Source of the DNA: a virus
Taxonomy: Duplodnaviria; Heunggongvirae; Uroviricota; Caudoviricetes
Reading direction: 5' to 3' (one strand)
DNA: 64,000 nt
IMG/VR virus record: IMGVR_UViG_3300033142_000627
Coordinates: 13,280-77,279 of that record
Position 1 is the stretch's first letter. Each line of letters starts with the position of its first letter. The notes beneath the pieces were generated by a model. The model saw only the letters and a list, made by a program, of their open reading frames with translations. It had not been told where the DNA came from and searched no databases. The position numbers and the translations under genes were made by a program. This document shows positions 4,910 through 59,570 of the stretch, one piece after another.

Positions 4910-4921
4910 AGATAGTTTACC

Positions 4922-6850: not shown

Positions 6851-6859
6851 AATAAACTC

Positions 6860-7605: not shown

Positions 7606-7638
7606 TCAATTACCTGTGAATATTTATACATAAGTGTA

Positions 7639-7670: not shown

Positions 7671-7671
7671 G

Positions 7672-25203: not shown

Positions 25204-25478
25204 TAAGATTTTCCTTTCCTATATTCGATCTCACATAATTCTCCAGGCAACATCTTGTAACGTTTTGAACCGTCAAGAACAACACCGTTTTCAAGGCCAA
25301 TAGAATAACCTCTTGTCCATTCTGTAGTATAGTTGTCACAGACAATTCTCGATTCTCTTGAAATCATATCATCATAAACAACAACAGAGGACCACATCAT
25401 ATAGACAAGCATCGAAATTGTTCCAATAGAAAACGTTATCCAAAAAGTATCCCAGAATCGATCACTATTTGTTCTCAA
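25203..25478 (-). CDS. Small membrane protein (91 aa)
   Basis: N-terminal TM helix. Confidence 0.4.
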   Translation of the reverse strand: MRTNSDRFWDTFWITFSIGTISMLVYMMWSSVVVYDDMISRESRIVCDNYTTEWTRGYSIGLENGVVLDGSKRYKMLPGELCEIEYRKGKS

Positions 25479-28284: not shown

Positions 28285-28486
28285 AGTATTTCATATCATG
28301 GATGGTAAACCAACCATCGTCACCGATGATTCCTACTACCGGACTAGACCAGATTGGTGAATCAGTAGGAGAGACAGTGGTAACTTTATACAATTTTCCT
28401 AAAGTTATGTTCAGGTCATCTCCAACTTTGATACACTTTATAAAGTCTGTGGCCTTAATCACCTTTAACAATACCTTCATGAACAT
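28256..28486 (-). CDS. Hypothetical protein (76 aa)
   Basis: Packed ORF. Confidence 0.35.
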   Translation of the reverse strand: MFMKVLLKVIKATDFIKCIKVGDDLNITLGKLYKVTTVSPTDSPIWSSPVVGIIGDDGWFTIHDMKYFEEQNDENI

Positions 28487-29468
28487 CCCGCATCCACGCC
28501 CACCAAGGAGTCATATTTGCACGTTCAGGGTAGTCGCTGACTTCGGCAAGCATCATCACTTTATCAACAAGTTCTTCCAGAATAGGTTGAACCTCTGTTG
28601 TGTAGTCAAGTTCACCACGTTTTACAGCAAGGATAAAATTTGTCTCGCCAAGAGGGTATGAGAAACCACCATCTTCATAGATGTGTTTCGCTTGAACACC
28701 AGCACGAATCGCGTGACTCACTGCCTTCCAATCAACACCTTGGTTCTCTTTCGCTGCCTGAGCACGAGCACCGTAACTTGACCATAGGTTCTTTAGTTGT
28801 TGTCTAAAGATACCGATTTTCAGAGTCGATTGGTACTTGCGACCAAGAAGTTCGTAGAAAGTCTGAATCTCGCCTTTGGTTCCCACTGTAGCAGTAACAA
28901 TGCCAGAGTGTTCGCTGACAGGTAGACTATTCATAAATGAACCCAGTGTGGTAGGCACCATATGGCCACCATCACCGTCTTCTCTTGGACGGAACATCTC
29001 ATCAGAAATAAGGTCAACTTTCTTCATCGCCTCTTCAAGAACAGCAAGGCGTGAACCCTTCACGCCATACTTGGCAGCCTGCTTACGCACGTAACCAATG
29101 TATGACTTCATGTTCTTAGTGTAGAAACCTTCACGACCTTTCTTGAGATGGTCCCAAAGATACAGAGCGTCACCACCGACCACATTCTTTTCTTGTGAAT
29201 GAAGCATATCGATTGCAACAGTCTCGCCTTTGCCAATCAGCTCAAGGAACCGTTGAAGAGAGAAGTATTCGGTATCGATATCGCCTGCGCCATTCTTCGA
29301 ACCATCATCGCCAGTTGAATGACTGATATGAAAGGACGTATTTCCCATAAGGATATCTTCCTTTGAAGGAAGAACAATGCCTTTGTAATCACGGTCAGAA
29401 TCAGGTCCGGATAGACCATAAAGATGCGATCCAAACTCAAGTTTTACAATTAGTTTTCTTTCGGTCAT
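28455..29468 (-). CDS. Pol-beta superfamily nucleotidyltransferase (337 aa)
   Basis: GSHLYGLSGPDSDRDY fits the GS-x9-13-DxD NTase signature; a downstream Asp follows (VAIDML). Confidence 0.5.
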   Translation of the reverse strand: MTERKLIVKLEFGSHLYGLSGPDSDRDYKGIVLPSKEDILMGNTSFHISHSTGDDGSKNGAGDIDTEYFSLQRFLELIGKGETVAIDMLHSQEKNVVGGDALYLWDHLKKGREGFYTKNMKSYIGYVRKQAAKYGVKGSRLAVLEEAMKKVDLISDEMFRPREDGDGGHMVPTTLGSFMNSLPVSEHSGIVTATVGTKGEIQTFYELLGRKYQSTLKIGIFRQQLKNLWSSYGARAQAAKENQGVDWKAVSHAIRAGVQAKHIYEDGGFSYPLGETNFILAVKRGELDYTTEVQPILEELVDKVMMLAEVSDYPERANMTPWWAWMRDVHEGIVKGD

Positions 29469-33375: not shown

Positions 33376-34038
33376 ATGACTACATCTATTTATACGCACT
33401 ATACATATTTAATAACCAATACAACTTCTAATAAAATGTATATTGGTCTACGTTCTTGTGTGGGTCCGGCCGAAGATGACCCATATATGGGATCATCCCA
33501 CGATAAAAAATTTAAAAAGCTTCTCTCAGATAAACCAAAAATATTCACAAAGATTATTATTGGATTATGGCCAAGTAGAAATCTGGCAGCTGCTCATGAG
33601 ATATGGTTACATGGTTATTATAATGTTGCGACAAACCCATTATATTACAATAAGTGTAACGCTATTGGTTCTGGGTTTAGTATGTTAGGTGTAAAAACAT
33701 CACCAGAGACAAAATTAAAACAAAGTTTATCCTCTATAGGACAAGAAAGAAGTGCTGAGTATAGAAAAAACATCAGCAAAGCTAAAATCGGTTCTCGTAA
33801 TCCGTTATTTAAAGGATGGTGTATACATAATGGAACAAAATATACACCTGTTGAATTATCTAAACATTTAGGTCACAAAATAACAAGAGGATGTTGTGAT
33901 AAATGGTGTAAAAATAACAATAGTGTTATATCAATTTATACGTATATCAACTCCCATTACCTACAATCATTAGGACCATCAGAATCATTGATAGGCAAAA
34001 CATTCGAACAGTTAGGATTTTCTTTCGAATTCGTTTAA
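33376..34038 (+). CDS. GIY-YIG homing endonuclease (Seg-like, with NUMOD-type DNA-binding repeats)
   Basis: YTYLITNTTSNKMYIG is a GIY-YIG motif. EYRKNISKAKIGSRNP is NUMOD3-like. It is the only plus-strand gene in a minus-strand array. Confidence 0.75.
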   Translation: MTTSIYTHYTYLITNTTSNKMYIGLRSCVGPAEDDPYMGSSHDKKFKKLLSDKPKIFTKIIIGLWPSRNLAAAHEIWLHGYYNVATNPLYYNKCNAIGSGFSMLGVKTSPETKLKQSLSSIGQERSAEYRKNISKAKIGSRNPLFKGWCIHNGTKYTPVELSKHLGHKITRGCCDKWCKNNNSVISIYTYINSHYLQSLGPSESLIGKTFEQLGFSFEFV

Positions 34039-35619: not shown

Positions 35620-35825
35620 TCTTCAAAAACCTTCGCTCCGAATACAGGCACACAATGTTTGTCTCTTGGTAATGATTTTTCACATTCTACAATAGACTGA
35701 TTTGTTTGTGTGCCATATTCATATACAGGCGTTTTTTTCATTATCCACATTCCAAAAAACATTGAAATGATAACCGCCCAGACAAAAGCGAGAAGGATTC
35801 CATTGTTGTTCATTGTACTCTCCAA
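35616..35825 (-). CDS. Small membrane protein (69 aa)
   Basis: TM helix. Confidence 0.4.
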   Translation of the reverse strand: MESTMNNNGILLAFVWAVIISMFFGMWIMKKTPVYEYGTQTNQSIVECEKSLPRDKHCVPVFGAKVFEE

Positions 35826-36913
35826 TTAACATCTTTAAAAATAAACTCACGGTTCTTAAACACGAAAGTCTTGTAGTTAACATCTTTGCCTAACCACTTC
35901 TGCATCACCAAGGAGAACACATCAGACATATCCTTTTGACCTTTGATAGCAAAGTCCTTACGTTCAAGTTCTTTGTTGTTCTCTACGAACTCTTCCACTC
36001 TAGCAACAATATGATTGTACTTGTGGAATACCATTTCTTCAAAGTCGTCAATGATCTTGATAGTCAATGGGTCATCATGGAACAATGAACGTAGGTCATC
36101 AGAACCTTCCTCAAGAACACAACCAAGAAGTCTCTTTGGATGATTCACATCGTCCTTAGCATGATGCAACTCAACGTAACGGTCAGTCTTGCACTTCACC
36201 TTGTGTTGTGACACAGGATGTTGGAATACAAAACCTTCGATAACAGTACCATCTTCGCCTTTCATAGCGGCAACATCTTCCATCTTGATATCTGTTTCGT
36301 ATTTTACCCAATACTTTTTTAGACTAGGAGATGGATCTCTCAAATATTTCGCCGGCATGTAATCGCCATATTTTCGATTACGCACATTCAAGATAACAAG
36401 TTTTGTTTCTGGATAAAGAATGACGATACGGTTATTAGGAGATACAATCTCCATATTAATGGTGTAACCTTCTTCTTCAATCTCTAATAAGATAGCTTTG
36501 AATTTTGGTTGTGTGTTTAACCAAATCTCAGCAAGATGTACTTGGTCAGAGTGTAGAGAACCTTTAGTCTTCAATCGAAGATTTCCTTTAACGTCAAGAT
36601 AGGTAGAGATAAGAGAGCCATCCTCTTTAACCATAATCTCGGTGTATTCGTCCCAGTTAGTCTCTTCATGTTCAGGCCATTGATTGCACTCACCATGATT
36701 CCAAAACTTTTCCATCGGGCGAGATACAATCTCTCCGTCACGGAACATAATACCACGCGCCTCTATTGCGCCTGGTTCTTGGAAGTCGGTGTATGATGCA
36801 AGACGATACAAAAAGATTTCGTATGTCGAACCATCATCACCAGATTGGGTGGACTTGTAGAACGCCTCGTTGTTTTCAACAAGGTCGTTTAAATTTTCGT
36901 ATAACGTTTTCAT
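35810..36913 (-). CDS. rnlA: RNA ligase 1 (T4 gp63 / Rnl1-like)
   Basis: VSRPMEKFWNHG and KEDGSLISTYLDVKG match T4 Rnl1 ASRPMEKFFNL and KEDGSLVSTYLDG. Confidence 0.85.
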   Translation of the reverse strand: MKTLYENLNDLVENNEAFYKSTQSGDDGSTYEIFLYRLASYTDFQEPGAIEARGIMFRDGEIVSRPMEKFWNHGECNQWPEHEETNWDEYTEIMVKEDGSLISTYLDVKGNLRLKTKGSLHSDQVHLAEIWLNTQPKFKAILLEIEEEGYTINMEIVSPNNRIVILYPETKLVILNVRNRKYGDYMPAKYLRDPSPSLKKYWVKYETDIKMEDVAAMKGEDGTVIEGFVFQHPVSQHKVKCKTDRYVELHHAKDDVNHPKRLLGCVLEEGSDDLRSLFHDDPLTIKIIDDFEEMVFHKYNHIVARVEEFVENNKELERKDFAIKGQKDMSDVFSLVMQKWLGKDVNYKTFVFKNREFIFKDVNWRVQ

Positions 36914-37621: not shown

Positions 37622-37695
37622 CCATTATACAGGTATCATTGGGAGAGTCAAGAGTTTACGTAAGTGGTTGATTTTGCATAGTATTTCTATGCAAA
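37622..37695 (-). promoter_or_regulatory. PeSL-like cassette 10 (TTGACT-16-TATAAT plus a 9-bp stem-loop TTTGCATAG/CTATGCAAA)
   Basis: -10 at 37624-37629, -35 at 37646-37651, hairpin at 37673-37695 that contains the stop codon of the upstream gene. Confidence 0.6.
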
Positions 37696-38487
37696 CAAGT
37701 CTTCCAGTGAACCTTCTTTTGTCTGATTTATGTTCTTGAGGTTGTATTTTGCGTCTTCAAACGTGAACGGCGGTTGGTCAATCTGAATCTTAGGTCGTTC
37801 TGTCTTGTCGAACCATGCTAGATCCTTCTCTTTAGGATAGTTCAATCCCCAAGTCATAGTAGAACCACGTTTCATCAGCTTCTTCGCCTTCTTATTCAGA
37901 GGCCAAATATATCTGAACATATAACCCTCAATGAACTTGATGTTTTTGGACTTCATAAAGGGTCTGGTCATCCAGAACAACTTCTCTTTGCCTTCAAAGA
38001 TAGCGTTCTCTTTGAGTAATCCCTTTGTGCTTCTTGGATGCAACTTCTCGCCATTCTCCATCATATAGACTTGAGTGAGATATTTTTCACCAAAGTAGGC
38101 ATTAGAGGCCTGATAGACATAACCTACCTTGCCCATGATTCCATCCGCCATGGTGTATAGGAATAACTTCTCTGGATATTCTTTCTTCAACCACTTGATG
38201 GTCTGAGAGACCATCTGCGATTCACTATTGCGCGGCATATCATCATCCATGCACATCTTGCCGATTTCAAAATAAGATTCTGTGCCCAATCCGGGAAACA
38301 TCTTATTGATAGTCTGTCGTGGTTGAGTTCCCCATCCTAAGGTAAGGACACCAACAAGTTCATCTTCAAGATAGAAACCAAGAAAATGTTTTGTGATTGA
38401 GGGGAATACAGGAGAATAGTGGTACTTCTGCACAAACTCCATGGCCTTCCATTTAGGAAGGTCACGAATTAAGAAGTTATACTTCAC
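37687..38487 (-). CDS. Hypothetical protein (266 aa)
   Basis: Long ORF. No confident motif. Confidence 0.5.
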   Translation of the reverse strand: MKYNFLIRDLPKWKAMEFVQKYHYSPVFPSITKHFLGFYLEDELVGVLTLGWGTQPRQTINKMFPGLGTESYFEIGKMCMDDDMPRNSESQMVSQTIKWLKKEYPEKLFLYTMADGIMGKVGYVYQASNAYFGEKYLTQVYMMENGEKLHPRSTKGLLKENAIFEGKEKLFWMTRPFMKSKNIKFIEGYMFRYIWPLNKKAKKLMKRGSTMTWGLNYPKEKDLAWFDKTERPKIQIDQPPFTFEDAKYNLKNINQTKEGSLEDLFA

Positions 38488-41055: not shown

Positions 41056-41487
41056 TTATTCTCCGTTATCTAATTTGGTGTACTTATCCACAATAATGCC
41101 TTGGGATTTAAGAAATTCTTCATCGGTCTGCGATTCAATATGTTCATAAACGATTCTGATAATGCCTGATTGTACAATCATCTTAGAACATTCGATATTC
41201 GGATAGTTGGTAGTGTATAATGTTGAACCATCAGATGATTCGCCGGTCATGGCCAATCGCAGAATAGCATTGGTAGTAGAGTGTATAACGGTGTCCTTTA
41301 GATTGCCGCGTTCGTCTTCACAATCGTTTACCATACCTTTCGGTTGGCCATTGTATCCCGCAGCAACAATGTTTCTGTCTCTAACAATTACAGAACCATG
41401 TTTGTACTCCTCACAATAAGACATTTCTGCGAATCTCTCAGCAATGTCCATAAAGAGGTCGTCATATCGTTGTCTAGTTTCCATCAT
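41056..41487 (-). CDS. dCMP deaminase-like protein with a degenerate active site
   Basis: VIVRDRNIVAAGYNGQPKG aligns to dCMP deaminase. The HAE motif reads HST and PCxxC reads PNIEC; both were re-translated from the DNA by hand. Confidence 0.65.
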   Translation of the reverse strand: MMETRQRYDDLFMDIAERFAEMSYCEEYKHGSVIVRDRNIVAAGYNGQPKGMVNDCEDERGNLKDTVIHSTTNAILRLAMTGESSDGSTLYTTNYPNIECSKMIVQSGIIRIVYEHIESQTDEEFLKSQGIIVDKYTKLDNGE

Positions 41488-41975
41488 TTACTCCACGAAA
41501 GATCAAGGTCTTCCATATATTCTTTTCTTAGTTGTATAAAGGCAGCGAATCTAGGCAGTGTTGTGATATCAAAGTCACCAACGTTATATGATAACGTCAC
41601 ATGAGGTTTATATTCATCAAAGTCATAGGTTGCGCCATGAGCATCCATCAGTTCTTGGTGTCTGTCAGTCATCCATTGTGACTCAACCTCCATCACCAGT
41701 GCGTTCTCCCCGTCTTTATTAGGCCACACATCAAATCCCTTGAAGACTGCTTGTTCTTCGATAGGACCTAAAGGGACGTAATTTTGGAGATGTTTTCTTG
41801 AGAACAACAATGTAGAATGAAAGTCATCAACACCCATAGTAGATGGAATCTTGTGTGTCTTAATGAACCATATCAAATCCTTTATAGTATCCCATGAGAA
41901 TCTAATACCTGCGTATGTTCCTTTCTGTTCCTCTGTGAGGAATTCCTTTACTGTCTTCATATTTACTAGTACCAA
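41484..41975 (-). CDS. 2H phosphoesterase (LigT / cyclic phosphodiesterase-like; candidate Acb1-like)
   Basis: Two H-x-T-x motifs, HSTLLF and HVTLSY, spaced about 70 aa apart in a 163-aa protein. Confidence 0.6.
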   Translation of the reverse strand: MVLVNMKTVKEFLTEEQKGTYAGIRFSWDTIKDLIWFIKTHKIPSTMGVDDFHSTLLFSRKHLQNYVPLGPIEEQAVFKGFDVWPNKDGENALVMEVESQWMTDRHQELMDAHGATYDFDEYKPHVTLSYNVGDFDITTLPRFAAFIQLRKEYMEDLDLSWSK

Positions 41976-43349: not shown

Positions 43350-43603
43350 TCATCCCAAAGCATATCAAGTTGCGATGGTGTCCAAGGCACAATAGAACCA
43401 TCAGCAGTACGCATATCGATATGACCGTTGTATGTAATCTCAGTATCAGCAGGATAGATGCCCAATAGAGGTGCTCTATTTACCTTAAAAGTGGAACCAT
43501 CGACAAGGAAGACAAACATTCCAGTTCCGTTCCACGCTCGACTGGTTACTTTCTTGCCGGCTTTAATCTGTTTAATCGCCCATGCAAAATCTTTAAATTC
43601 CAT
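43331..43603 (-). CDS. DUF2829-like protein (Tad2-like candidate), 90 aa from the MEFKDF start
   Basis: MEFKDFAWAIKQIKAGKKVTSRAWNGTGMFVFL matches the DUF2829 N-terminal signature. The ATG at 43603 is TAATG-coupled to the upstream stop. Confidence 0.55.
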   Translation of the reverse strand: MEFKDFAWAIKQIKAGKKVTSRAWNGTGMFVFLVDGSTFKVNRAPLLGIYPADTEITYNGHIDMRTADGSIVPWTPSQLDMLWDEWEIVE

Positions 43604-44022
43604 TATTTTCTCCTGTTCCAAATATCTTTGGCTTCTTGTTCTGTGTAATAACTTCCTGTATGCACACAACCTCTTGTACAGGCAACATAATATTCCATAT
43701 CGCCTCCGTTCATCGTGGTCTTTATTGCGCCTTTAGCACCACACATAGGACACGATTCGAGTTCCTTTGGTATCCAACCGGCAATCCTACCACATCCTTC
43801 ACAAGGATGTGTCACATGACTTAAACATCCCGGATGACCACAAGGAAGACCGTCTCTTAATTCCTGATCACCATAGGCACAATCTGCACAATGACCAGCA
43901 CGTTTATCGCCAACAAAATAATCTCCACATTGCAGACACTTGTTTGAATAACCTCCAGGCGCCCACCAACCTCTAGCAGGTCGGCGGTCTTCTTTCATAT
44001 TGTCCCAATCTTCTTTATTCAT
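43603..44022 (-). CDS. Cys-rich zinc-binding protein with a Lar-like (restriction alleviation) C-terminus
   Basis: Multiple CxxC pairs. The C-terminus YYVACTRGCVHTGSYYTEQEAKDIWNRR resembles the Lar family ending ...EA...WN.R. Confidence 0.35.
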   Translation of the reverse strand: MNKEDWDNMKEDRRPARGWWAPGGYSNKCLQCGDYFVGDKRAGHCADCAYGDQELRDGLPCGHPGCLSHVTHPCEGCGRIAGWIPKELESCPMCGAKGAIKTTMNGGDMEYYVACTRGCVHTGSYYTEQEAKDIWNRRK

Positions 44023-48988: not shown

Positions 48989-49192
48989 TTAGTTATGTTT
49001 GGAGTAATTGCTTAATCGCGCTCCATCTTGAAACCCAGAGGATTTAAAATGAAGATGTTCTATATATTTTGTGTGGCCACATTTGTTACACTTAACTACA
49101 TGGTGGGACTCAGTTTTGATAATGTTTCCACACTCACAAATAACAGTGTTAGTTATAACACCCTTATCAACACCAATAGACTTTAATATCAT
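48989..49192 (-). CDS. Small zinc-ribbon protein (start revised to MILKSIG)
   Basis: CECG...CNKCGH motif. The listed start would overlap the plus-strand gene by 44 nt. Confidence 0.4.
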   Translation of the reverse strand: MILKSIGVDKGVITNTVICECGNIIKTESHHVVKCNKCGHTKYIEHLHFKSSGFQDGARLSNYSKHN

Positions 49193-49589
49193 GTTTAACT
49201 CCGATAATTTTGAAAAACCATTAAACAGTAACACATATCTTATATATGCCGCGAAGAACTATCACAATAAGTTTTGTAACGGCCTTGATGAATTCACACA
49301 GGATATCAAAACTCTATCTTCAATCAAAAGATCGTTGAGAAAGTATTCTAAAACTGGTGACATTAAGTTACAATTGACACTTAATCACATCATTACGTTC
49401 AGGAACCTCTTTGGTTCAATACAAGCTGGACGTATATTATTCTATTATTGTGACACTTTTACATATCCGGCGCTCAAGACACTGCTTACTTATCTTGAAT
49501 GCTGTCCTGCGGATATTCCAGAGGTAGATATAGCTAACATCAAGTATGATGATCATTTGATAGACATAATTCGGACTTACAATAAATAA
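49191..49589 (+). CDS. Hypothetical protein (132 aa), first gene of the plus-strand operon
   Basis: ATG at 49191 (MFNSDNFEKPL). Opposite strand to its neighbours. Confidence 0.45.
   Translation: MFNSDNFEKPLNSNTYLIYAAKNYHNKFCNGLDEFTQDIKTLSSIKRSLRKYSKTGDIKLQLTLNHIITFRNLFGSIQAGRILFYYCDTFTYPALKTLLTYLECCPADIPEVDIANIKYDDHLIDIIRTYNK
49582..49588 (+). promoter_or_regulatory. Late-promoter-like ATAAATA core
   Basis: caATAAATAataac sits 40 nt upstream of the ATG at 49628. Confidence 0.3.
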
Positions 49590-49627
49590 TAACATTATCA
49601 AACACTTTAGTCAAGAGAATATCTAAA

Positions 49628-50146
49628 ATGGGTCTACTTCAATCACTCGCAGCATATAAAATCATAAAAGCTCTTGCCACGCCGTTTCCTAAATGGCCTG
49701 CATACAAGCTTGGTTTGATTGACGACAAAGGACGTACACTCAGAGAACCAAAGACCAAAGAAGAGAAAGATTCTCTATCTCTATTCGACAGGGTCATCAA
49801 AAACGTAAAGAAACTCATCATGAGAGCTCCTATGGGTTCATTTGCTGTTGGTTCACTCATTGTTGCACTAAAGATTCTCAAAGAAGATGCCGGGCATGAT
49901 GTTACTGATATTGTACTTGAATACCTAGATGATAATGGTATTGTTTTACAACTGAATGAGGATGATAACTCAAAAGAACCTTTCTGTCAAGGCAAATACA
50001 TAGATAATCTATCAGAGAAGATGTTTATTGTCAAGGAAGAGTTATTCCCTTGTGATATCATCATGGGATGCCCAGTTTACGAGGTTACAGATGTGGTTGG
50101 TAAAGACGTATTATTCGTCACAAGAGATAATGTAAGAATGGTATGA
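49628..50146 (+). CDS. Hypothetical protein (172 aa)
   Basis: Plus-strand operon ORF. Confidence 0.5.
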   Translation: MGLLQSLAAYKIIKALATPFPKWPAYKLGLIDDKGRTLREPKTKEEKDSLSLFDRVIKNVKKLIMRAPMGSFAVGSLIVALKILKEDAGHDVTDIVLEYLDDNGIVLQLNEDDNSKEPFCQGKYIDNLSEKMFIVKEELFPCDIIMGCPVYEVTDVVGKDVLFVTRDNVRMV

Positions 50147-50167
50147 CAAGATCCGTACCATAATTTG

Positions 50168-50174
50168 ATAAATA
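50168..50174 (+). promoter_or_regulatory. Late-promoter-like ATAAATA core
   Basis: tgATAAATAataat sits 27 nt upstream of the ATG at 50201. Confidence 0.3.
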
Positions 50175-50200
50175 ATAATAAGATTTAATAGGAATAGTAA

Positions 50201-50791
50201 ATGAAGTCGTTTAAAGATTTTGGCAATCACCAAGAATTCTCTCTGGAGTTGAATAACATTATTGAATTAATGGAATTTGAGAAGATGGGAGTAGATACCC
50301 TAACAGAGGAAACACTGGACGAATTTAAGATGCCTGATATAACCGGCGCATTGAAGACCGCTGGGTTCCATGTAAAGAAGGGACGAGGCCTAATGCAAAT
50401 CATTGCTGCTTCTGGTACCCATATGGCGAAGATTCTATACCATGCTGTGAAGGCAGCGAAAGGTGATGAAGCTTCCGTCGCAGAATTAAAGAAATTACTA
50501 GCAAAGAAAATAACCAAAGAGGACATCATTGATGTTCTTTTAAAGATTGACCAATTAACATTACACGCATTGACTGGTCCTATTCATGCGATTGAGGCGA
50601 TTACAGGTTGGCATATTGCAGCTGCGATTAAGAATGTAAGAAAGGTCAGTGATGATATCAAGCAGAAGGTTGTTAATGTCATTGATACCTTAAAGACACT
50701 CGCAAAGAAGGTTGATAAGGCCATCGCGGCAAAGGTGACCTCTTTGACAACCGATATTTCAAACACATTCAAAGATTATACGGTAGCATAA
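50201..50791 (+). CDS. Candidate head internal protein with a capsid-targeting-like N-terminus (196 aa)
   Basis: N-terminus MKSFKDFGNHQEF resembles the T4 internal-protein leader MKTYQEFIAE. Ala/Lys-rich helical body. Confidence 0.4.
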   Translation: MKSFKDFGNHQEFSLELNNIIELMEFEKMGVDTLTEETLDEFKMPDITGALKTAGFHVKKGRGLMQIIAASGTHMAKILYHAVKAAKGDEASVAELKKLLAKKITKEDIIDVLLKIDQLTLHALTGPIHAIEAITGWHIAAAIKNVRKVSDDIKQKVVNVIDTLKTLAKKVDKAIAAKVTSLTTDISNTFKDYTVA

Positions 50792-51282
50792 TGAGATCAT
50801 TTAAGAAATGGGTAGATGATAATGTCATCGGCAATATTGTTTATTATATCGACAAGGGCGATAATGTAGATAAGATTGTTAAAAATATTAATAGTCATAC
50901 TGGTACCAATATGAAGAAGATGTTGAAAAAGTCTTTCTCAAGGATGAAACCAGAAGAGGTTTCAAAAACAACATATGATAAACTAAAACGTATCGTATCA
51001 TTGGTAGAAGAAGCATCAACAACCGTCGCAGGAGTCTCAGGAGGACCCGGTGGTTCGTTTGAACCTCACGGCATGGCATTCGGTAAGCCTTACTTTGATG
51101 TATGTCAGGACACCTTCTCAGCATGTTACAAAGGTGGCAAAGAACATCGTAAACATTGGTTAAAGAAACTAGGCAATACGGAATCATCACATCTGATTCG
51201 TAGATGGACGGCAAAGAATCCCGGCAAACAGTTTCTATTGAAGTTGAAAGACCAGAATCAATGGGTTAACGGTAGAGCATAA
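50791..51282 (+). CDS. Candidate internal protein (163 aa) with a similar MRSFKKW N-terminus
   Basis: Same M-[KR]-S-F-K N-terminal pattern as the preceding gene. ATGA coupling. Confidence 0.4.
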   Translation: MRSFKKWVDDNVIGNIVYYIDKGDNVDKIVKNINSHTGTNMKKMLKKSFSRMKPEEVSKTTYDKLKRIVSLVEEASTTVAGVSGGPGGSFEPHGMAFGKPYFDVCQDTFSACYKGGKEHRKHWLKKLGNTESSHLIRRWTAKNPGKQFLLKLKDQNQWVNGRA

Positions 51283-51605
51283 TGATACTAAAACCTAAAA
51301 CGACCATTTTACTATCAGAGATAGGCATTAGCGCTCTGATGATTGCAAGTTGTTACATATTCCTTGTGGATTACATTAGTCTCAGAGAAGACAACGAAAT
51401 AGCCATGGAATATATTGAAAATTTCAGAACTGACCACGGTTCAATGAAAATAGAACTTCAAAATAAAATTAAGATAGTTGAACACAGCTCAACGAAATTA
51501 AAAAATAGTAAATTACTATACGATGGAAGAATAAGTCGAATCAAGGAACTAGAAGAAAGAATAAAATCACTTGAGAAGACGGCACTTTCTAATGACGGAA
51601 CTTAA
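51282..51605 (+). CDS. Membrane-anchored coiled-coil protein (107 aa)
   Basis: N-terminal TM helix then a heptad-like region. Confidence 0.45.
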   Translation: MILKPKTTILLSEIGISALMIASCYIFLVDYISLREDNEIAMEYIENFRTDHGSMKIELQNKIKIVEHSSTKLKNSKLLYDGRISRIKELEERIKSLEKTALSNDGT

Positions 51606-52170
51606 TAAAAACGATAAAGCGAACGACAACAATCAACAAAATATTTTCAATGACTTGCAAAAGCAAATTAAAGTATTAGAAGATGAACTCGTTGCGGTCT
51701 CAAAAGGAGATAGCGTATCAACCAAAGATGTTGTGAAAATAAATCGTCTTGTTAAATCTATATGGTCTCTGGCCAGTATCTTTCTCGCCTTGGTGTCCTC
51801 AACATCCTATATATACATAGAATCAAAAAGAGCACTAGATGCGATTGAAGAAAATAACACAGCAATCGTTGAAATAAGAAAAGAAGACAAAAAGGTATTA
51901 GAACTTGTCAAAAAAGCTTTAGAAAAGAACGACGAAGAATTATCAAAAATAATCAATATCAAAGTTGATGATAGATTATCAGATTTGGTAAAGATAACAA
52001 AAGAGGCCGCCGACGATGCGAAGGATTCCAGAGAGTTGGTTGAGGAATCTGCTCAGGCAATGGCAGGAATGAATGACTCTGTGAGAGCTAACTATAAAGA
52101 ACTTCTTAGATATAAGAAAGAGGTTACTGTTAGACTACAAAGAATCGAAAAGAAGTTAAAAGCTAAATAA
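51589..52170 (+). CDS. Coiled-coil protein with a central TM segment (start revised to MTELNK)
   Basis: Heptad repeats. Hydrophobic stretch IWSLASIFLALVSSTSYIYI. Confidence 0.45.
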   Translation, partial: LMTELNKNDKANDNNQQNIFNDLQKQIKVLEDELVAVSKGDSVSTKDVVKINRLVKSIWSLASIFLALVSSTSYIYIESKRALDAIEENNTAIVEIRKEDKKVLELVKKALEKNDEELSKIINIKVDDRLSDLVKITKEAADDAKDSRELVEESAQAMAGMNDSVRANYKELLRYKKEVTVRLQRIEKKLKAK

Positions 52171-52173
52171 ATA
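52167..52173 (+). promoter_or_regulatory. Late-promoter-like ATAAATA core
   Basis: aaATAAATAcac sits 34 nt upstream of the ATG at 52207. Confidence 0.3.
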
Positions 52174-52206
52174 CACAAAATAAGAATCGACAAATGAGAA
52201 TCGAGA

Positions 52207-52662
52207 ATGAATTTATTAAAAGCAATAACTTTATGTTTTGTGATAAGTTTAGCTGGCAAACCATCAATAACACAGGCCGAGTTTTCCATACAACAGAACG
52301 AACTGGTAGGACCAGTACCTACTAAAGATACAAATTCATTCATCACTCAATATGAACTATATAACATATTCAGTTTTAATGAGACAGAAAGTTGGAACGG
52401 AGGTCGTATTGTGGTTGTAATGTTCGACATACACTCTAGGGAACACAAGAATTTTGTAAAAGATACCATTCTGTATCCTTGGAAGTCCTATATGAAGTAC
52501 GCTGAACGTAGATACAAGTCAGCTGATACTATTATTGTTAAGAACTATAGCGAGATGATAGAAGCAATCACATACAACTTGGGTGCTATTGGTTACTTGC
52601 CAAAAGGTAGTGTGTTGTACAATAGCAAACATAACGGAATTGTAGAGGTGAAGATTAGATAA
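52207..52662 (+). CDS. Secreted protein (151 aa, signal peptide)
   Basis: Signal peptide MNLLKAITLCFVISLAGKPSITQA. Confidence 0.5.
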   Translation: MNLLKAITLCFVISLAGKPSITQAEFSIQQNELVGPVPTKDTNSFITQYELYNIFSFNETESWNGGRIVVVMFDIHSREHKNFVKDTILYPWKSYMKYAERRYKSADTIIVKNYSEMIEAITYNLGAIGYLPKGSVLYNSKHNGIVEVKIR

Positions 52663-53363
52663 TGCCCGATTCATACATATATAAAATGGCGGATAAACAC
52701 AACGTAACTGTGGACAGAACAGAAGAGTTGTGGTTCAAAGCAAGAAAACTTGCTGCAGAGGCAGGTCACAAAGACGAATATGATTACATTACAGGAATAT
52801 TTAAGAAAATGATAGGCGAAGAGATGAACGAAGATTACTGGTCAGACTTTCCAGAAAAGATTGACGATAAGAAAGTACAACTATTCTTGGGTCGTATGCA
52901 ACCTATCCATAAGGGACACGATGCAATCATTAAGATGATGAAGAATCCAGTCGTTGTTCTTGTAAAAGGAAAGGAGTCTTCAAAGGACAAGTCAAGGAAT
53001 CCACTGGACGCGAAGTATCAGACCAAGTTGATACACAAACTCAACCCTAGAGCGATGGTCATTGTGGCGAAAACTGGTTACATTCCAGACACTATCTCAT
53101 TACTACGTGACCAAGGACTTGATGTTGATTTAGTATTAGCAGGCAACGACCGCATTGGTTCATATAAGAAACAGATTGATTCAGCGAATAAGAAACTTGA
53201 TGACTGGCAACAAATGGAAGTTAAGTATAAGGAAACGCCTAGAATTACATCAGCTACAGATGTTCGTAACGCTATTAAGAGTGATGACAGAGAGACATTT
53301 GAAAAGCTTGTCCCTAAGAAACTTCATTCTGAATGGGACAAACTACGCAAACTGGTTAAGTAA
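52662..53363 (+). CDS. NadM-type nicotinamide-mononucleotide adenylyltransferase-like protein (HxGH cytidylyltransferase fold)
   Basis: LFLGRMQPIHKGHDAII matches archaeal-type NMNAT GRFQPFHKGH. C-terminal ITSATDVRNAI matches the ISSTxIR motif. Confidence 0.6.
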   Translation: MPDSYIYKMADKHNVTVDRTEELWFKARKLAAEAGHKDEYDYITGIFKKMIGEEMNEDYWSDFPEKIDDKKVQLFLGRMQPIHKGHDAIIKMMKNPVVVLVKGKESSKDKSRNPLDAKYQTKLIHKLNPRAMVIVAKTGYIPDTISLLRDQGLDVDLVLAGNDRIGSYKKQIDSANKKLDDWQQMEVKYKETPRITSATDVRNAIKSDDRETFEKLVPKKLHSEWDKLRKLVK

Positions 53364-54416
53364 TTAGAACTTAATATTGTTATCGAAAGAAACTAAAGGT
53401 TCTACTTGTAGAAAGTCCATAAGGTTCTTGTAACTTTTCTTTACCCAAGATATAATCTTCATTATAATGGACTTAATGAATGATTTTGCCTTGTTGAATA
53501 TATCTGCGATTACGCCTTCTGTTAATGCATACTCTGGAATATCATCGATATCTTCTTGGAGTTTATCCACAATAAGACCTACAACAGACCAGTAACGGTA
53601 GTTCCCTGTCTTCTGTTTCTTTCCATCAATAACTTTCTTCTCTGAACCAGACTTGAAGCGTACAGACACCTTCATCTTCTTTGCGATAGATGAAACGTAT
53701 GCCTTATCATTAACAGGTACGTGATGAATCTTTGAACCATCCCATGTTACAACAAGGAAACTTGAACAAGCACCATCGTTGCCACCAAACTTAACATCTC
53801 CTGACATTGCTTCATACGCAAATGCATCTCTGAACGATTGGTTGGTTGAGAAAACCTTGGTCAACTCTCTCATCAGGTCTTTATGTACAGCATCGGCCTG
53901 TTTAACAAGTTCGTCTTTGCCGCTTTTTATTGCTGCGCGTAGATTCCCTTTTGTTACTCCTGCTGGAGACAACTGGTCAAATCCTTTTCTCAAGGTATCA
54001 GAAACTTTCTTATCGACACCCTTTAATTGATTCGCAGCGGCGTAGAATGTTGCGCGGGCCTCATTACGACCACCTGACATTAATTGTGCTGCTTGTCCCG
54101 TCTTGAGAGATATCTTATCCGAGCCGATGACGATATCAGTCTTAGGAGTCTTTGTGCCGCCTGGAACCTTACCTTCTGGCCAGTATGTTGACCACTCTTT
54201 AGTAACAGGCATAGTGGAGGCGCCAAGAGAAGAGGCTTTGCCTGACTCGCCTTTACTCTTCAACTCAGCAACAATCTTTTCAACGTTCTCTTGTGTGATA
54301 CGTTTATCTGTTATATCACTAGGAATCTCTTGACCATTCCATACCGCGATAATGGCATTCTCCATCTGTATACCAGGAGATGCTGCTTCGTTAATATATT
54401 CTTTGAAACCTTTCAT
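53364..54416 (-). CDS. Hypothetical protein (350 aa, Lys/Gly-rich)
   Basis: Long ORF with no recognised motif. Confidence 0.5.
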   Translation of the reverse strand: MKGFKEYINEAASPGIQMENAIIAVWNGQEIPSDITDKRITQENVEKIVAELKSKGESGKASSLGASTMPVTKEWSTYWPEGKVPGGTKTPKTDIVIGSDKISLKTGQAAQLMSGGRNEARATFYAAANQLKGVDKKVSDTLRKGFDQLSPAGVTKGNLRAAIKSGKDELVKQADAVHKDLMRELTKVFSTNQSFRDAFAYEAMSGDVKFGGNDGACSSFLVVTWDGSKIHHVPVNDKAYVSSIAKKMKVSVRFKSGSEKKVIDGKKQKTGNYRYWSVVGLIVDKLQEDIDDIPEYALTEGVIADIFNKAKSFIKSIIMKIISWVKKSYKNLMDFLQVEPLVSFDNNIKF

Positions 54417-54700
54417 TATTTACCAACTTTTTTAATGTTCTTATCAATGAATTTTTTAACATCTTGGCGTTTAACTTTGTCTTTGAAAGCAGGTTCAAAA
54501 TCATGTTCACCAGTTTTCATATCCAAATATACTGTCCAAATATTGTAATGATTTCCGTTCTCGGCCTTGGCACCTACCAAGTATATATCTCCCTTCACTT
54601 GTCGAACATACTCAACAACATCTGTATCAAATACATTTGACTCAAACCATTTTACATCTTTCTTTATGGATTCGTTCAAGAGTTGTTTTACTGTTTTCAT
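54416..54700 (-). CDS. Hypothetical protein (94 aa)
   Basis: ATGA-coupled to both neighbours. Confidence 0.45.
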   Translation of the reverse strand: MKTVKQLLNESIKKDVKWFESNVFDTDVVEYVRQVKGDIYLVGAKAENGNHYNIWTVYLDMKTGEHDFEPAFKDKVKRQDVKKFIDKNIKKVGK

Positions 54701-55941
54701 TATAGTCTCCAGACCAGATTTGTTATTTGGTTAACAGGCGCGAATACACCAGTGAATTTGAGTAGTTCGCCTTTGTAGAAGAATGTAATGCCTTCTGTAG
54801 GCATAAGATTCTTTATTCCACCAAGAGCATCTAATTTCTTTAGTTGTGCATCAAGCGTCTTTTTCAGACCTTCGTTATCCGAGGCCTTAATCTTGTTAAC
54901 CGAATTCCACATATTGTCAGCAATCTTCTGCATAGACTTATCAGGATTAACGGTCATCATTGAAGAGATGGTCTTCATCAACTCTGTACCAACACCAAGA
55001 AATACATTCTCGATAGGGTGCATCATCTCTTTCCATACCTTCTGCATAGACTTGTCAATCTTTTGAATCCAAGACTTCAACTCTGGTACCAGTTTATAGA
55101 TACTAGTGATGGTCACAGACTTGTCGCCATGCGCCCATCTGTTAACCAATGAGGTATGTACATCATCAGGCAACGATGTCTTCTTGATCACGTTGTTGAT
55201 TATGTAGTTTCGTTTATATGTAGAAAGTTTATCTGAATTCTTTACACCTTGAGACTTCATAATCTTATTGAGTTTGACAAGGTACTTGTCTGTACGTTTC
55301 TTGTGGTCTTTCATTGCACCAACTTTGACCTTAGATAGACCTTTCATTTCGAAACGCTTTCCTTTGTCCAGACCTTTACCACGTAGAATCTTCTCAAGAT
55401 ATCTGCCGTCTGATTGGTTCAACTTAGAAATAGGGTTGCCGTCTTCGTCCAGTTCGATAGTGCCGTGGAAACGAATCTCTGATACACCGTAGTGTACGAT
55501 GTTCTCATTCTCTGGTACCATAACCTCAATAGAAATCCACTTGTGACCTTCATTGAAGAAATATTCTTTGTCGGCCGGACTAAGTTGTGACATTGCATGT
55601 GATAGTTCATTCATCACATCAGAGTATGCTGTAAGTAATGCACCACGACCGGAGAACTTGGCAACAATTCCTGCTTTATCCAGTGCGTTCTCACCAAAGT
55701 TCTTTTGATGACCCTTATTACGAGAGGCGATTAACTTATTGTTTTTCCAAGAGAACATCAGGTTTTGGCCATCGGTTTTCTCTGTGACTTGTTCAAGTCT
55801 ACCTTGAAATGCTCTTACAATGATGCCTTTGATTTCGTTGAATGTGAAATCAATATCATATGGATGCGAAAGGTGACCGAAACCACCGCCTTCTGATAAG
55901 GTATGGGTTTCATTGTATTCTTTGAATCTAAGCACACACAA
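54700..55941 (-). CDS. Covalent nucleotidyltransferase of the ligase superfamily (third ligase-like protein; KxDG motif I)
   Basis: EKTDGQNLMFSW is a ligase/capping-type motif I. Downstream ISIEVMVP and FEMKGLSKVK resemble motifs III/IV and V. Confidence 0.5.
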   Translation of the reverse strand: MCVLRFKEYNETHTLSEGGGFGHLSHPYDIDFTFNEIKGIIVRAFQGRLEQVTEKTDGQNLMFSWKNNKLIASRNKGHQKNFGENALDKAGIVAKFSGRGALLTAYSDVMNELSHAMSQLSPADKEYFFNEGHKWISIEVMVPENENIVHYGVSEIRFHGTIELDEDGNPISKLNQSDGRYLEKILRGKGLDKGKRFEMKGLSKVKVGAMKDHKKRTDKYLVKLNKIMKSQGVKNSDKLSTYKRNYIINNVIKKTSLPDDVHTSLVNRWAHGDKSVTITSIYKLVPELKSWIQKIDKSMQKVWKEMMHPIENVFLGVGTELMKTISSMMTVNPDKSMQKIADNMWNSVNKIKASDNEGLKKTLDAQLKKLDALGGIKNLMPTEGITFFYKGELLKFTGVFAPVNQITNLVWRL

Positions 55942-56023
55942 CTCCTATAAATGAATAAAGGCATCGGGGTGGTGGCAACCCCTGAGTACCTTCCTAATAT
56001 AGTTATTTATGTTATCTTACCGT

Positions 56024-56666: not shown

Positions 56667-56936
56667 TTATCTAATGAAATCCCAGTAATCCATAGGTTCT
56701 ATACCTCTTGGCATATCATCAATCCAATCATCAAACGCCTGCATTTCCTTTTTAGATGCATGGTCATAAACAATATCCGTAGCTTCTCCCCACTCACCAT
56801 CCTCAAGAGCAACAGATAATTCATGTGAGTCATTTGTTTTCTTAATCTTTTTGATTAGATTAAAAATAATCTTTGGTATATCTTTTTTATCAGCGCGCTT
56901 AACGGCCTCGTTAAGGAATTCTTTTGTTGTTTTCAT
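56667..56936 (-). CDS. Hypothetical acidic protein (89 aa)
   Basis: Packed ORF. Confidence 0.45.
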   Translation of the reverse strand: MKTTKEFLNEAVKRADKKDIPKIIFNLIKKIKKTNDSHELSVALEDGEWGEATDIVYDHASKKEMQAFDDWIDDMPRGIEPMDYWDFIR

Positions 56937-56940
56937 TTAT

Positions 56941-58023
56941 CTACCTTATCATTTGTATGTCGTCTGTATGTATATTATCCAAAGACCATACTTCAAGGTC
57001 CTTTTTTAATCTATCCTCAGAACGAAGTTTTTCCCAACGCTTTACAGATTTCTTTTTCCATATCGATATCATCTCTTCGCTAGATTTACTGATATTGTTA
57101 CAGTAATAGTAATTCTTCTTGGTTGTTATATTAGACTTCGTTTTTATCATATTAGAGAATTCATGGTATTTATCTATATCATGATGTTTTAATGAATTCT
57201 TTATTGTCCTGATAAGGCCATTAAATCTCTTTGTCTTTACTGAACTTGAGTTGACCGTTATGTTGACAACATGATTACCTTCATTCTCGGATTTGATGAT
57301 AATTGTTAACTTTTTGATAACATCATCAGAAGGGTACATCATCAGGTTTGAATCAGTTCTTACCTTAGACCTCTTTATAATGGGTTTAAGTCCATCGTAT
57401 TGAGAAGACTGTTTAATGGAACCATATAGACTGGTCGTTTCGAAGTATTGTATATCAGTGTCATACTTGTTGTTGAAACGGTCTCTTATGTCTGTAGATG
57501 CCGCTATTAGTGCAAGTAGTTTGCCGCCGAGATAGTTAAAACCAAACGGTTGAACCGGCACGATTACGATGCCATTATAGAAGGTACGGTTCAATTCTTC
57601 TGGTTTTATGACATAATCCAACATCGTGTTACGAGGTTTCATATTGATTGTCGGGGAAGACATCTTAATAAAACCTAATAACTTTTTCGTGTTGTTCTCC
57701 CACACCTTAACACACAATGACCGACCCGGAGTGGGCCCGACGACAAACGACGAAACGTATTGTAACTGATTATAATACTCTCTGTTCTCTGGTGTATACT
57801 CTAATCTAATGTCCATATCCATTGGAGACATATCATAATCATTAAAATATATATCAGAATACATGTGATTACCAAAAATGTCATAGGATTCCATATCTAA
57901 TAACTTGATTCCTTTTCTAATTCTTTGGTATTGTTCTATATCAGTAATATCAGCGTAAGCATCCATTAATATATCATAACACCTAAGTGTGTTACGTTCG
58001 GACAATATTAGTTTATCTACCAT
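56941..58023 (-). CDS. Unknown-function protein, paralogue A of a tandem pair (360 aa)
   Basis: About 60% identical by eye to ORF 58344-59570 over the whole length. Confidence 0.55.
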   Translation of the reverse strand: MVDKLILSERNTLRCYDILMDAYADITDIEQYQRIRKGIKLLDMESYDIFGNHMYSDIYFNDYDMSPMDMDIRLEYTPENREYYNQLQYVSSFVVGPTPGRSLCVKVWENNTKKLLGFIKMSSPTINMKPRNTMLDYVIKPEELNRTFYNGIVIVPVQPFGFNYLGGKLLALIAASTDIRDRFNNKYDTDIQYFETTSLYGSIKQSSQYDGLKPIIKRSKVRTDSNLMMYPSDDVIKKLTIIIKSENEGNHVVNITVNSSSVKTKRFNGLIRTIKNSLKHHDIDKYHEFSNMIKTKSNITTKKNYYYCNNISKSSEEMISIWKKKSVKRWEKLRSEDRLKKDLEVWSLDNIHTDDIQMIR

Positions 58024-58343: not shown

Positions 58344-59570
58344 TTACCTTATCATCTGAATTTTGTCACCAAGAACCGTATCTAGATCCCAAATCTCAAG
58401 TTCTGTACGAATTCTATCATCGGCTGCAAGATTGTCATATCGTCTTTGTGCCTTGCGTTTCCACCAAACAACCATTTCTTCAACGCTCTTATTAATGTTG
58501 TTGCAGTAATAGTAATTCTTTTTGGTAGTAATCTCCTTCTTCACAGCAAGGAACTCTTTCAAGTGGTCGTGTTTCTCCATATCATGTACCTTTAGAGAAG
58601 CATATAGACGCGAGAACATACCGTTCATTCGTTTCAACTTGACAGAACCACTATTTGCCTCTACGGCGTGTTGACCATTATTCTCGCTCTTGAAGATTAA
58701 CGCCATCTTTCCGAGAACTTCATCGGATGGGTACATCATAAGATTTGAATCTGTTTGTGCCTTACAACGGCGAATCATAGGTTTCAGACCGTCATACTGT
58801 GAAGACTGTTTGATTGATCCATATAAGCTGGTTGTTTCAAATGTCTGAATGTCAGTACCATATTTCTTATTGAACATATCACGTACATCAGTTGAAGCAG
58901 CGATTAACGCCATCAGTTTACCACCAAGGGCATTATAACCGAATGGTTGTACAGGTACAAGAATGATACCGTTATAGAACGTGCGATTCAATTCTTCGGG
59001 TTCAACGATTCTATCCATCATCACATTACGAGGTTTCATATTGAGAGTAGGTGAACCCAACTTCATAAATCCAAGTGTCTTGCCTGTGTTCGCCTCAACA
59101 GCGCGTAGGTGCAAGGTACGACCCGGTGACGGTACAATCGCCATAGAGGACACTACTTGTATCTGTTCATAGAAATCTCTTGAGGAGAGTTCTTCCACGC
59201 GGATTTCCATATCATCTGGACGCATATCATAGTCATTAAACAGAATATCGTCATACCATTCCGTACCATCGATAGACTGTGAAGAACCGGTCTTCATCAA
59301 CATCTCAAGTTTACGGAATCTCTGATATGATTCAATGTCGTGAAAGTTTGAGTAGTAGTCAATAAGAAGTTTATAACAGGCAATTGCCTTATCCTTAGGG
59401 AGAATCAACATCTCGCCTTCTTTTCTATCAGATTCGAATAACGCCTGTGGTTTTTCTGGTTGGTCCGGTTCTTTGTCCGGACGTTTGAACTTTCCTACTG
59501 TACTCTCTTTCTCAACGGCAAGGTCTTCGCCGAATAAATCTTGTGAACTCATAATATTTCCCATAATCAA
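58344..59570 (-). CDS. Unknown-function protein, paralogue B of the tandem pair (408 aa)
   Basis: Shares the blocks NRTFYNGI..VPVQPFG.N.LGGKL.ALIAAST and TKKNYYYCNNI with paralogue A. Extra 48-aa N-terminus. Confidence 0.55.
   Translation of the reverse strand: MIMGNIMSSQDLFGEDLAVEKESTVGKFKRPDKEPDQPEKPQALFESDRKEGEMLILPKDKAIACYKLLIDYYSNFHDIESYQRFRKLEMLMKTGSSQSIDGTEWYDDILFNDYDMRPDDMEIRVEELSSRDFYEQIQVVSSMAIVPSPGRTLHLRAVEANTGKTLGFMKLGSPTLNMKPRNVMMDRIVEPEELNRTFYNGIILVPVQPFGYNALGGKLMALIAASTDVRDMFNKKYGTDIQTFETTSLYGSIKQSSQYDGLKPMIRRCKAQTDSNLMMYPSDEVLGKMALIFKSENNGQHAVEANSGSVKLKRMNGMFSRLYASLKVHDMEKHDHLKEFLAVKKEITTKKNYYYCNNINKSVEEMVVWWKRKAQRRYDNLAADDRIRTELEIWDLDTVLGDKIQMIR

Follow-up and report, generated by a model that had tools for sequence, protein, structure and literature searches.

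The gene at 52662-53363 (plus strand) of a 64-kb stretch of an uncultured phage genome (IMG/VR record IMGVR_UViG_3300033142_000627, positions 13,280 to 77,279; hereafter the window, the part of the genome that is visible here) encodes a nucleotidyltransferase (NTase) of the HIGH superfamily. It is probably better described as a phage-specific relative of the nicotinamide mononucleotide (NMN) adenylyltransferases (NMNATs) than as a simple gene for the salvage of nicotinamide adenine dinucleotide (NAD). The best explanation, to which we give a probability of about 0.55, is that the enzyme is made late in infection, is packaged into the head by means of an N-terminal leader, is injected with the DNA, and works with an RNA-ligase-like enzyme encoded nearby. 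We infer packaging, cleavage and ejection of the window NTase, as well as its cooperation with the ligase, from the genes of the window and from precedents in other phages.

The open reading frame (ORF) starts with ATG, codes for 233 amino acids (aa), and matches exactly the gene that the first-pass annotation had described by its GRMQPIHKGH and SATDVR motifs. Both motifs are in place (GRMQPIHKGH at aa 77-86, nt 52890-52919; TSATDVR at aa 196-202, nt 53247-53267) and are invariant in 53 metagenomic homologues of 50-69% identity, as well as in 49 family sequences. The ORF exceeds the Pfam gathering score of PF01467 CTP_transf_like (28 bits vs 21, aa 74-203), and the protein has the Rossmann-like α/β fold in which HxGH ends the first strand; these two features place it in the HIGH superfamily. 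The AlphaFold2 (AF2) model has a mean pLDDT of 93. That the gene encodes an active HIGH NTase is very probable. Further motifs of the catalytic domain are SSKDKSRNPL, TGYIPD, AGNDR..Y, and TPRITSATDVR, which includes the second of the motifs above. The layout of the gene is as follows.

52662..53363, plus strand: complete ORF, with leader domain, linker and HIGH-superfamily nucleotidyltransferase domain (Pfam, homologues, AF2 model)
52662..52817, plus strand: N-terminal leader domain, aa 1-52, MPDSYIYKMADKH...YDYITGIFKKMIGE (phmmer, cargo clusters, AF2 helices)
52818..52871, plus strand: linker, aa 53-70, EMNEDYWSDFPEKIDDKK (alignment with homologues)
52872..53360, plus strand: catalytic HIGH nucleotidyltransferase domain, aa 71-233 (PF01467, phrog_3041/phrog_395, invariant columns, fold searches, hhalign to NadM)

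The N-terminal extension, put at 60 aa by the first-pass annotation, is real and conserved, but consists more exactly of a leader of ~52 aa that ends in MIGE and of an 18-aa linker, the catalytic domain beginning near aa 71. In the closest homologues, the linker EMNEDYWSDFPEKIDDKK aligns with the stretch that follows a short leader resembling the capsid-targeting sequence (CTS) of T4, e.g., MKSFIDYTNALILE followed by DFAADFPEK in P0002. The 52-aa leader, for which the AF2 model predicts three helices at residues 3-12, 17-33, and 40-61, is conserved at the protein level: it is 56% identical to the start of an unrelated 136-aa protein (P0054) and 45-50% identical to modules in P0006 and L008. 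In P0006 it precedes MSFKSYIEE and an NTase, in L008 (10796-11257) it precedes the decapeptide MKTYAEFINE, which shares 8 of 10 residues with the T4 CTS, and then another cargo, and loci L014 and L030 carry it on other cargoes. A phmmer search against 1.84 billion representatives returned 380 clusters, 24 of them at E <=1e-10, with nearly all the matches at residues 1-55 of proteins ranging from 65 to 961 aa. Among the best 150 matches, 139 begin with MP, 85 carry an [ILVM]-x-E site whose end lies at median residue 53 (MGE, IGE, VGE, LGE), and the 115 cargoes of at least 120 aa form 76 unrelated clusters, mostly without Pfam domains. Because the same module is found at the N-termini of unrelated cargoes, the extension is, on sequence comparison, a portable leader domain separate from the enzyme. 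The module ends in GIFKKMIGE, and MIGE at aa 49-52 fits the cleavage rule of the T4 protease gp21 (I-x-E), so it may be read as a long-form propeptide ending in a protease site. A pattern scan of IMG/VR for the module found one contig, and a literature search did not find its sequence in papers. The leader domain and the pairing of the NTase with an RNA ligase both appear to be new, as no earlier description of either was found.

The short leader of the homologues brings a closer precedent. In T4, the CTS MKTYQEFIAE is enough to bring any protein fused to it into the head, and is cut off afterwards. Its residues 4 and 7 set targeting, residues 8 and 10 set processing, and the site after which gp21 cleaves is L/I-x-E (PMC9026906). 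Of the 53 NTase homologues, about 40 start with MK[ST]F..[FYH][IL]xE followed by A, E, or K (e.g., MKSFKTFINE before AIDP and MKSFKNFLAE before ALDP), a decapeptide that agrees with the T4 CTS at precisely positions 4, 7, 8, and 10. The strict 10-residue leader occurs 61 times in the first 12 residues of ORFs, versus 17 times internally in 428,000 residues, when all collected loci are taken together. At least 24 unrelated cargo families bear it, and its variants include MKTYIEFITE, MKTYNEFITE, and MKTYTEFIKE. The decapeptide is absent from the window NTase itself, and heads the following six proteins of the window.

53364..54416, minus strand: 350-aa protein, convergent with the NTase, leader MKGFKEYINE followed by A (decapeptide pattern)
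54416..54700, minus strand: 94-aa protein in the same operon as the ligase-like gene, leader MKTVKQLLNE (decapeptide pattern)
56667-56936: 89-aa protein with the decapeptide
50201-50791: protein with the decapeptide
41484-41975, minus strand: Acb1 anti-CBASS protein (PF23474, 6.8e-36), leader MKTVKEFLTE directly before the Acb1 domain
11498-12097, minus strand: S-AdoMet-lyase-family protein (PF23780), leader MKTKKEFLSE, with ATAAATA 26 nt upstream

By the same pattern the Acb1 anti-defence enzyme may be packaged and injected. The S-AdoMet-lyase-family protein may be another injected anti-restriction enzyme, by analogy with the S-adenosylmethionine (SAM) hydrolase found in the virions of S-CREM2 (see below). 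Homologues of the 350-aa protein adjoin the NTase in loci L016 and L035 and are fused with it in L083, where a single 1681-aa ORF (3645-8690) joins an NTase domain, a homologue of the 350-aa protein, a SET domain, and an HNH motif in an architecture like that of polyvalent proteins. The 350-aa protein (53364-54416) itself has no match in Pfam, PHROG, or PDB; by eye, its 'KTDIVIG...ISLKTG' recalls PD-(D/E)xK nucleases.

Relatives of the NTase have been detected in purified virions. Mass spectrometry (MS) of S-CREM2 virions found a 'cytidylyltransferase', gp154, along with a SAM hydrolase, and its authors remark that cytidyltransferases are frequently detected in cyanophage virion proteomes (PMC10665884). 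S-CREM2 gp154 begins with MKNFSSFLTE and matches the window family with 95.7% probability (E 1e-8), versus only 15% for true NadM. In S-SZBM1, the cytidylyltransferase S-SZBM1_140 is the only enzyme among 30 virion proteins (PMC9146016). It is a homologue of Syn9 gp184, which begins with MKKFSAFLSE and is encoded just upstream of head genes. In the Campylobacter phage CP220, the domain forms the C-terminus of a 503-aa protein beside a virion structural protein and the portal, and in Moby and BUDD the NTase lies between a Hoc-like protein and the baseplate hub. We consider delivery of the NTase by the virion to be somewhat favored.

Expression late in infection, as proposed by the first-pass annotation, is supported in part. 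The exact T4 late promoter, TATAAATA, occurs at chance level in the window, and the NTase block lies amid replication genes. The core ATAAATA, on the other hand, is placed nonrandomly: 12 of its 19 copies (e.g., 1840, 6284, 12124, 13776, 49582, 50168, 52167, 56004, 59598) lie at most 80 nt upstream of same-strand starts, a zone that makes up 9.3% of positions (P = 1e-8). The NTase block holds four of the six plus-strand copies (48969, 49582, 50168, 52167). The last of these precedes a gene whose stop overlaps the ATG of the NTase (TAATG), which implies translational coupling of the two. Sigma-70-type promoters and terminators are no more frequent in the block than expected from shuffled sequence. 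Judging from its placement, ATAAATA, and not the full TATAAATA, behaves as the late-promoter core of this phage, which makes it plausible that the block is a late operon despite its surroundings. The elements concerned are these.

52167..52173, plus strand: late-promoter-like ATAAATA, 33 nt upstream of the gene at 52207 that is coupled to the NTase
52207..52662, plus strand: upstream co-transcribed gene, 151 aa, hydrophobic N-terminus (stop overlaps the NTase ATG; same position in L001)
56004..56010, minus strand: late-promoter-like ATAAATA, 62 nt upstream of the operon of the ligase-like, 94-aa, and 350-aa genes
54700..55941, minus strand: RNA-ligase-like covalent nucleotidyltransferase, 413 aa, with K55xD57G, E139, E383-G384, and K395

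The ligase-like gene forms, with those of the 94-aa and 350-aa proteins, one minus-strand operon convergent with the NTase. Its product has no significant sequence match in Pfam, PHROG, or PDB, and in many other phages it is fused to a HIGH NTase domain of the window type, in some cases as a protein of 637 aa (e.g., P0172). A functional coupling between the NTase and the ligase-like protein is rather likely.

What the enzyme transfers, and to what, can be approached through its relatives. It matches phrog_3041 (1.1e-19) and phrog_395 (1.4e-10) by profile and 104 phage records by tblastn. Against PDB, the family profile gives NadM at 2.5e-6 and phosphopantetheine adenylyltransferase (PPAT) at 5.8e-3, glycerol-3-phosphate cytidylyltransferase (GCT) being absent. 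An hhalign comparison with NadM has a probability of 97% across the whole catalytic domain, at ~19% identity. The interpretation in the first-pass annotation is partly supported: the motifs and a relation to NMNATs stand, but the assignment to the NadM-type NMNATs probably does not. The curated NMNAT models (TIGR01527, PRK01153, PRK05379 series) are missed by far (24.5 bits vs 181; 28.4 vs 127; <=20 vs 340-450), with matches mostly confined to aa 74-128, the ATP-binding stretch from HIGH to NPL. Asp78 and Trp85 (KVP40 NatV numbering, β3-loop/helix) are invariant in six true phage NadMs and align by hhalign with Tyr140 and Ile145 of the window family; Trp85 we take to be the residue that stacks on the nicotinamide ring. 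The family has instead its own invariant set, G139, Y140, P142, R149, D163, R164, and Y168. True phage NadMs have 341-405 aa and Nudix motifs, whereas no Nudix domain was found in the 233-aa NTase, for which Pfam gives PF01467 only.

The distribution of the family points the same way. Its closest cultured carriers, Xanthomonas phage X1 (a 47% identical member at 82.5 kb) and Stenotrophomonas phage YB07 (a member at 49.6 kb), both have a canonical salvage cluster besides, lying apart: NadM, Nampt, and NAD synthase at 107-113 kb in X1, NadM and Nampt at 67-70 kb in YB07. Nearly all T4-like cyanophages have a member of it (557 phage records), and this group does not figure among the 403 phage records matching a NadM probe. 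Members also occur in Campylobacter, Stenotrophomonas, Xanthomonas, and jumbo enterobacterial phages. From the low curated scores, the replaced Asp and Trp, the separate NadM clusters of X1 and YB07, and the distribution among cyanophages, the family would be a paralogous offshoot of the NadM/archaeal NMNATs with a role of its own. By the alignments, its HIGH active site is intact and of NMNAT ancestry, and its acceptor site is apparently remodelled relative to NMNATs. The enzyme is most likely an ATP-using, phage-specific adenylyltransferase, a diverged sister of the NadM/archaeal NMNATs.

Under the favored explanation, the NTase would be synthesised late in infection and steered by its leader propeptide into the prohead core, as are the T4 internal proteins. 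The prohead protease would trim the propeptide after (I/L/V/M)-x-E, here MIGE at aa 49-52, and the enzyme would be ejected into the host together with the phage DNA, there to cooperate with the divergent RNA-ligase-like enzyme of the convergent operon. Its chemistry would be the transfer of AMP from ATP to an acceptor bearing a 5'-phosphate. There are two candidate acceptors: NMN would yield NAD+, possibly supplying or recycling a cofactor of the ligase-like partner, and a 5'-phosphorylated nucleotide or RNA end would yield an App-intermediate. NMN seems doubtful as the main physiological acceptor.

If the NTase were instead a stand-alone cytoplasmic NadM-type NMNAT, making NAD+ from NMN and ATP for salvage or counter-defence, the Nampt step would have to come from the host or from another part of the phage genome. 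The ancestry of the domain suits this scenario, which we nevertheless regard as unlikely. Besides the failure at every curated cut-off, the replaced Asp and Trp, the missing Nudix domain, the intact NadM clusters that X1 and YB07 hold separately, and the cyanophages, in which the family abounds and which do not appear among the 403 NadM-matching records, a lone NMNAT could not convert the products of NADase defences, ADP-ribose and nicotinamide, to NAD+. The neighbours also argue against it. Pfam scans of essentially every window ORF of at least 55 aa found no Nampt/NadV, phosphoribosyl pyrophosphate (PRPP) synthetase/Adps, Namat, PnuC, NadR/NR kinase, or Nudix, and none of these is among the recurrent neighbours within ±10 kb of 66 non-identical related loci. 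The earlier remark that no Nampt is adjacent thus holds across the whole 64-kb window, where no PRPP-synthetase-like partner is found either. It has been stated that 'every NadM phage has NadV' (PMC9503650). The conserved partners of the NTase are the RNA-ligase-like enzyme and leader-bearing proteins, not NAD enzymes. A pathway of the NARP3 kind (PnuC with a NadR-like protein) was considered and rejected, as its NMNAT is of a different class and the window has no PnuC. Many database annotations suggest an enzyme of envelope or cofactor metabolism instead, either a cytidylyltransferase or a PPAT-like one (of the GCT, ADP-heptose synthase, or PPAT type). In fold comparisons NMNAT and PPAT are equally close, so that fold does not decide the substrate and by itself would allow a PPAT. 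The profiles place PPAT (E 6e-3) well behind NadM (2.5e-6) and do not retrieve GCT, the GRxQP context of HxGH and the NPL loop are NMNAT-like, and no teichoic-acid, lipopolysaccharide, or coenzyme A genes lie alongside the NTase in the 66 loci. An enzyme of this type is very improbable.

The NTase could also be an ordinary intracellular partner of the RNA-ligase-like enzyme in RNA repair or modification, in which case the leaders would have nothing to do with packaging and be short helices or cassettes for recombination or translation initiation, and contamination would explain the detections in virions. The fusion and neighbourhood with the ligase-like protein would be expected in this case too, and the window is rich in RNA-repair genes (Rnl1, Rnl2, RlaP, HAD_SAK_2). 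Several observations indeed weigh against packaging. CTS function has been demonstrated only in T-even phages, and in the window NTase the short CTS, the only signal with packaging precedent, is replaced by the long module. The homologues of BUDD and Moby have no leader at all. The authors of the MS study warn that abundant soluble proteins may co-purify (PMC10665884), and the window holds no prohead protease or scaffold gene whose cleavage sites could be compared. Others weigh against the pairing with the ligase. The NTase domain of the 637-aa fusions is only ~20% identical to that of the window, so that their functional equivalence is deduced from profile matches and a shared Y-x-P signature. 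The ligase is present in only 9 of 24 close loci, within the sequence available. Syn9 gp185, tried as a ligase-like partner, was rejected as not ligase-like, and the pairing is hence not universal. Finally, effectors without a functional relation can be brought together in polyvalent fusions and in clusters of injected proteins, so that a fusion need not mean a shared pathway. Still, a purely intracellular role appears improbable to us. It does not account for a leader that agrees with the T4 CTS at its mapped functional positions, with up to 8 of 10 residues, and that stands strictly at the N-terminus of dozens of unrelated cargoes. Two independent virion proteomes found the enzyme, and packaging also fits the late-promoter-like motifs and the location beside head, portal, or baseplate genes that is seen in four groups of phages.

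Were the packaging model true, it would explain why a 'metabolic' enzyme recurs in cyanophage virion proteomes, and capsid targeting of the T4 kind would reach as far as remote T4-like phages, marine and environmental. A simple sequence rule would then predict injected proteins, in the window including Acb1 and the S-AdoMet-lyase-family protein, and the new 52-aa leader domain could be used for loading cargo into phage heads. The fusion of the NTase with the RNA-ligase-like protein provides a concrete biochemical hypothesis, testable with two recombinant proteins. Pipelines and papers give this widespread family various names (cytidyltransferase, NMNAT, PPAT, FAD synthase, even ADP-ribosyltransferase), and it cannot safely be counted among the genes of NAD salvage or counter-defence. 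One may tentatively go further and imagine that several T4-like lineages inject a two-enzyme module, composed of a NadM-derived adenylyltransferase and a divergent RNA ligase that are sometimes one 637-aa protein. The module would be active as soon as infection begins and could, for instance, seal or re-activate RNA that defence nucleases of the host have cut, or restore NAD+ or an NAD-like cofactor on the spot when the cell is depleted of NAD. The ~52-aa domain 'MP..Y(I/V)KK...W.KAK...DYITGIFKKM.GE' would in the same speculation be a widespread capsid-targeting propeptide for at least 76 unrelated cargo families.

The window belongs to an uncultured T4-like phage, as it encodes gp32, gp59, DNA ligase, a gp46/47-type exonuclease, Rnl1, Rnl2, ribonucleotide reductase (RNR), a gp61-like primase, a gp41-like helicase, and UvsX. 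At the nucleotide level the region matched no cultured phage in a Megablast search, and the helicase is at most 48% identical to that of any cultured isolate. Most genes are on the minus strand, and the NTase is the last gene of a short block on the plus strand (49071-53363). This block shows full synteny with L001, a metagenomic contig of 22 kb, and is flanked by genes of replication and nucleotide metabolism (RNR, primase, helicase, UvsX). For the genes directly beside the NTase, sequence searches in PHROG, Pfam, and PDB were nearly all empty. Among the 66 NTase loci, DUF7207 is found in 18 and the LGLID protein in 16. The remainder of the block is as follows.

49071..52170, plus strand: DUF7207, 'AYKLGLID' protein (phrog_18642), MKSFKDF... 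protein, MRSFKKW... protein, and two small coiled-coil/membrane proteins (conserved with the NTase in related phages)

Elsewhere in the window, four minus-strand stretches (16133-17028, 25465-26349, 28455-29468, 35810-36913) make up an unusually rich set for RNA repair and nucleotide signalling, with a YAcAr SLOG domain, HAD_SAK_2 (a 'Swiss army knife' RNA-repair HAD), Rnl2, an RlaP Pol-beta nucleotidyltransferase, and Rnl1; the RNA-ligase-like gene at 54700-55941 comes on top of these. A Mom-family protein (37687-38487, minus strand; PF25680, 4.6e-53) hints that adenines of the phage DNA may be modified in the Mom manner. Near Acb1 lie a Lar-type restriction-alleviation protein (43603-44022, minus strand) and a dCMP deaminase (41056-41487, minus strand), which form with it a small cluster of anti-defence and nucleotide metabolism. 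Downstream of the helicase are two phrog_19197 paralogues (56941-58023 and 58344-59570, minus strand), the second with ATAAATA 27 nt upstream; their orthologue in L001 is flagged as PF14236 (DruA, a Druantia defence protein domain). A GIY-YIG/NUMOD3 homing-endonuclease-like gene (33376-34038, plus strand), on the strand opposite to its neighbours, is probably a mobile insertion. A 260-aa protein on a 4.9-kb JGI metagenome contig (P0055) is 100% identical to part of the window ligase-like protein, which shows that a public JGI metagenome contains this phage too; the contig could help to recover the rest of the genome. A 'Ghiorsea' bacterial homologue of the NTase was rejected as a sign of cellular origin, its contig being that of a T4-like phage, and Serglycin matches in the Pfam scan were discarded as artefacts of GS linkers.

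With NadM and the archaeal NMNATs (M. jannaschii MJ0541, M. thermautotrophicus, Francisella, Synechocystis NadM, KVP40 NatV), the window NTase shares the HIGH Rossmann-like fold, GR(F/M)QPxHxGH, a loop of equal length ending in NP(F/L), and a C-terminal SxTxxR; it differs from NadM by the lack of a Nudix domain and of linkage to Nampt, and by its leader peptide. The cyanophage proteins Syn9 gp184, S-CREM2 gp154, and S-SZBM1_140 ('cytidyl(yl)transferase', phrog_3041/phrog_395) form one family with it at the profile level, but proteins of this type are only ~27% identical to it. They have 286-382 aa, with an extra linker and C-terminal β-rich domains, and bear the decapeptide, whereas the window NTase has no C-terminal extension and bears the 52-aa leader instead. 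The NARP pathways are all two-gene systems in which a partner supplies the precursor (NARP1, Adps and Namat; NARP2, Nampt and NadM-Nudix; NARP3, PnuC and a NadR-like protein). In NARP2 and NARP3 the final step is NMN adenylylation by a HIGH-superfamily domain, which is also a candidate activity for the window NTase; the latter, however, has no precursor partner in the window or the 66 loci, its conserved partner being RNA-ligase-like. That partner differs from the ATP-dependent RNA ligases (NgrRnl/Rnl5, T4 Rnl1, Rnl2, the Trl1 ligase domain) by a large helical insertion, a conserved N-terminal GG.FGHL..P.D motif, a CTS-like leader, and its frequent fusion to a HIGH NTase. A further parallel is with the T4 internal proteins IPI, IPII, IPIII, and Alt, which the CTS directs into the head. 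Here the cargo is a HIGH-superfamily enzyme, the phage is only distantly related to T4, packaging is predicted from the genes, and a 52-aa helical domain replaces the decapeptide or, in other proteins, precedes it. In both cases, an N-terminal decapeptide of the form MK(T/S)(Y/F)x(E/Q)(F/Y)(I/L)xE stands on unrelated cargoes, with a predicted L/I-x-E cleavage site, a fit with late expression, and anti-defence proteins among the cargoes, here Acb1 and the SAM-lyase-family protein.

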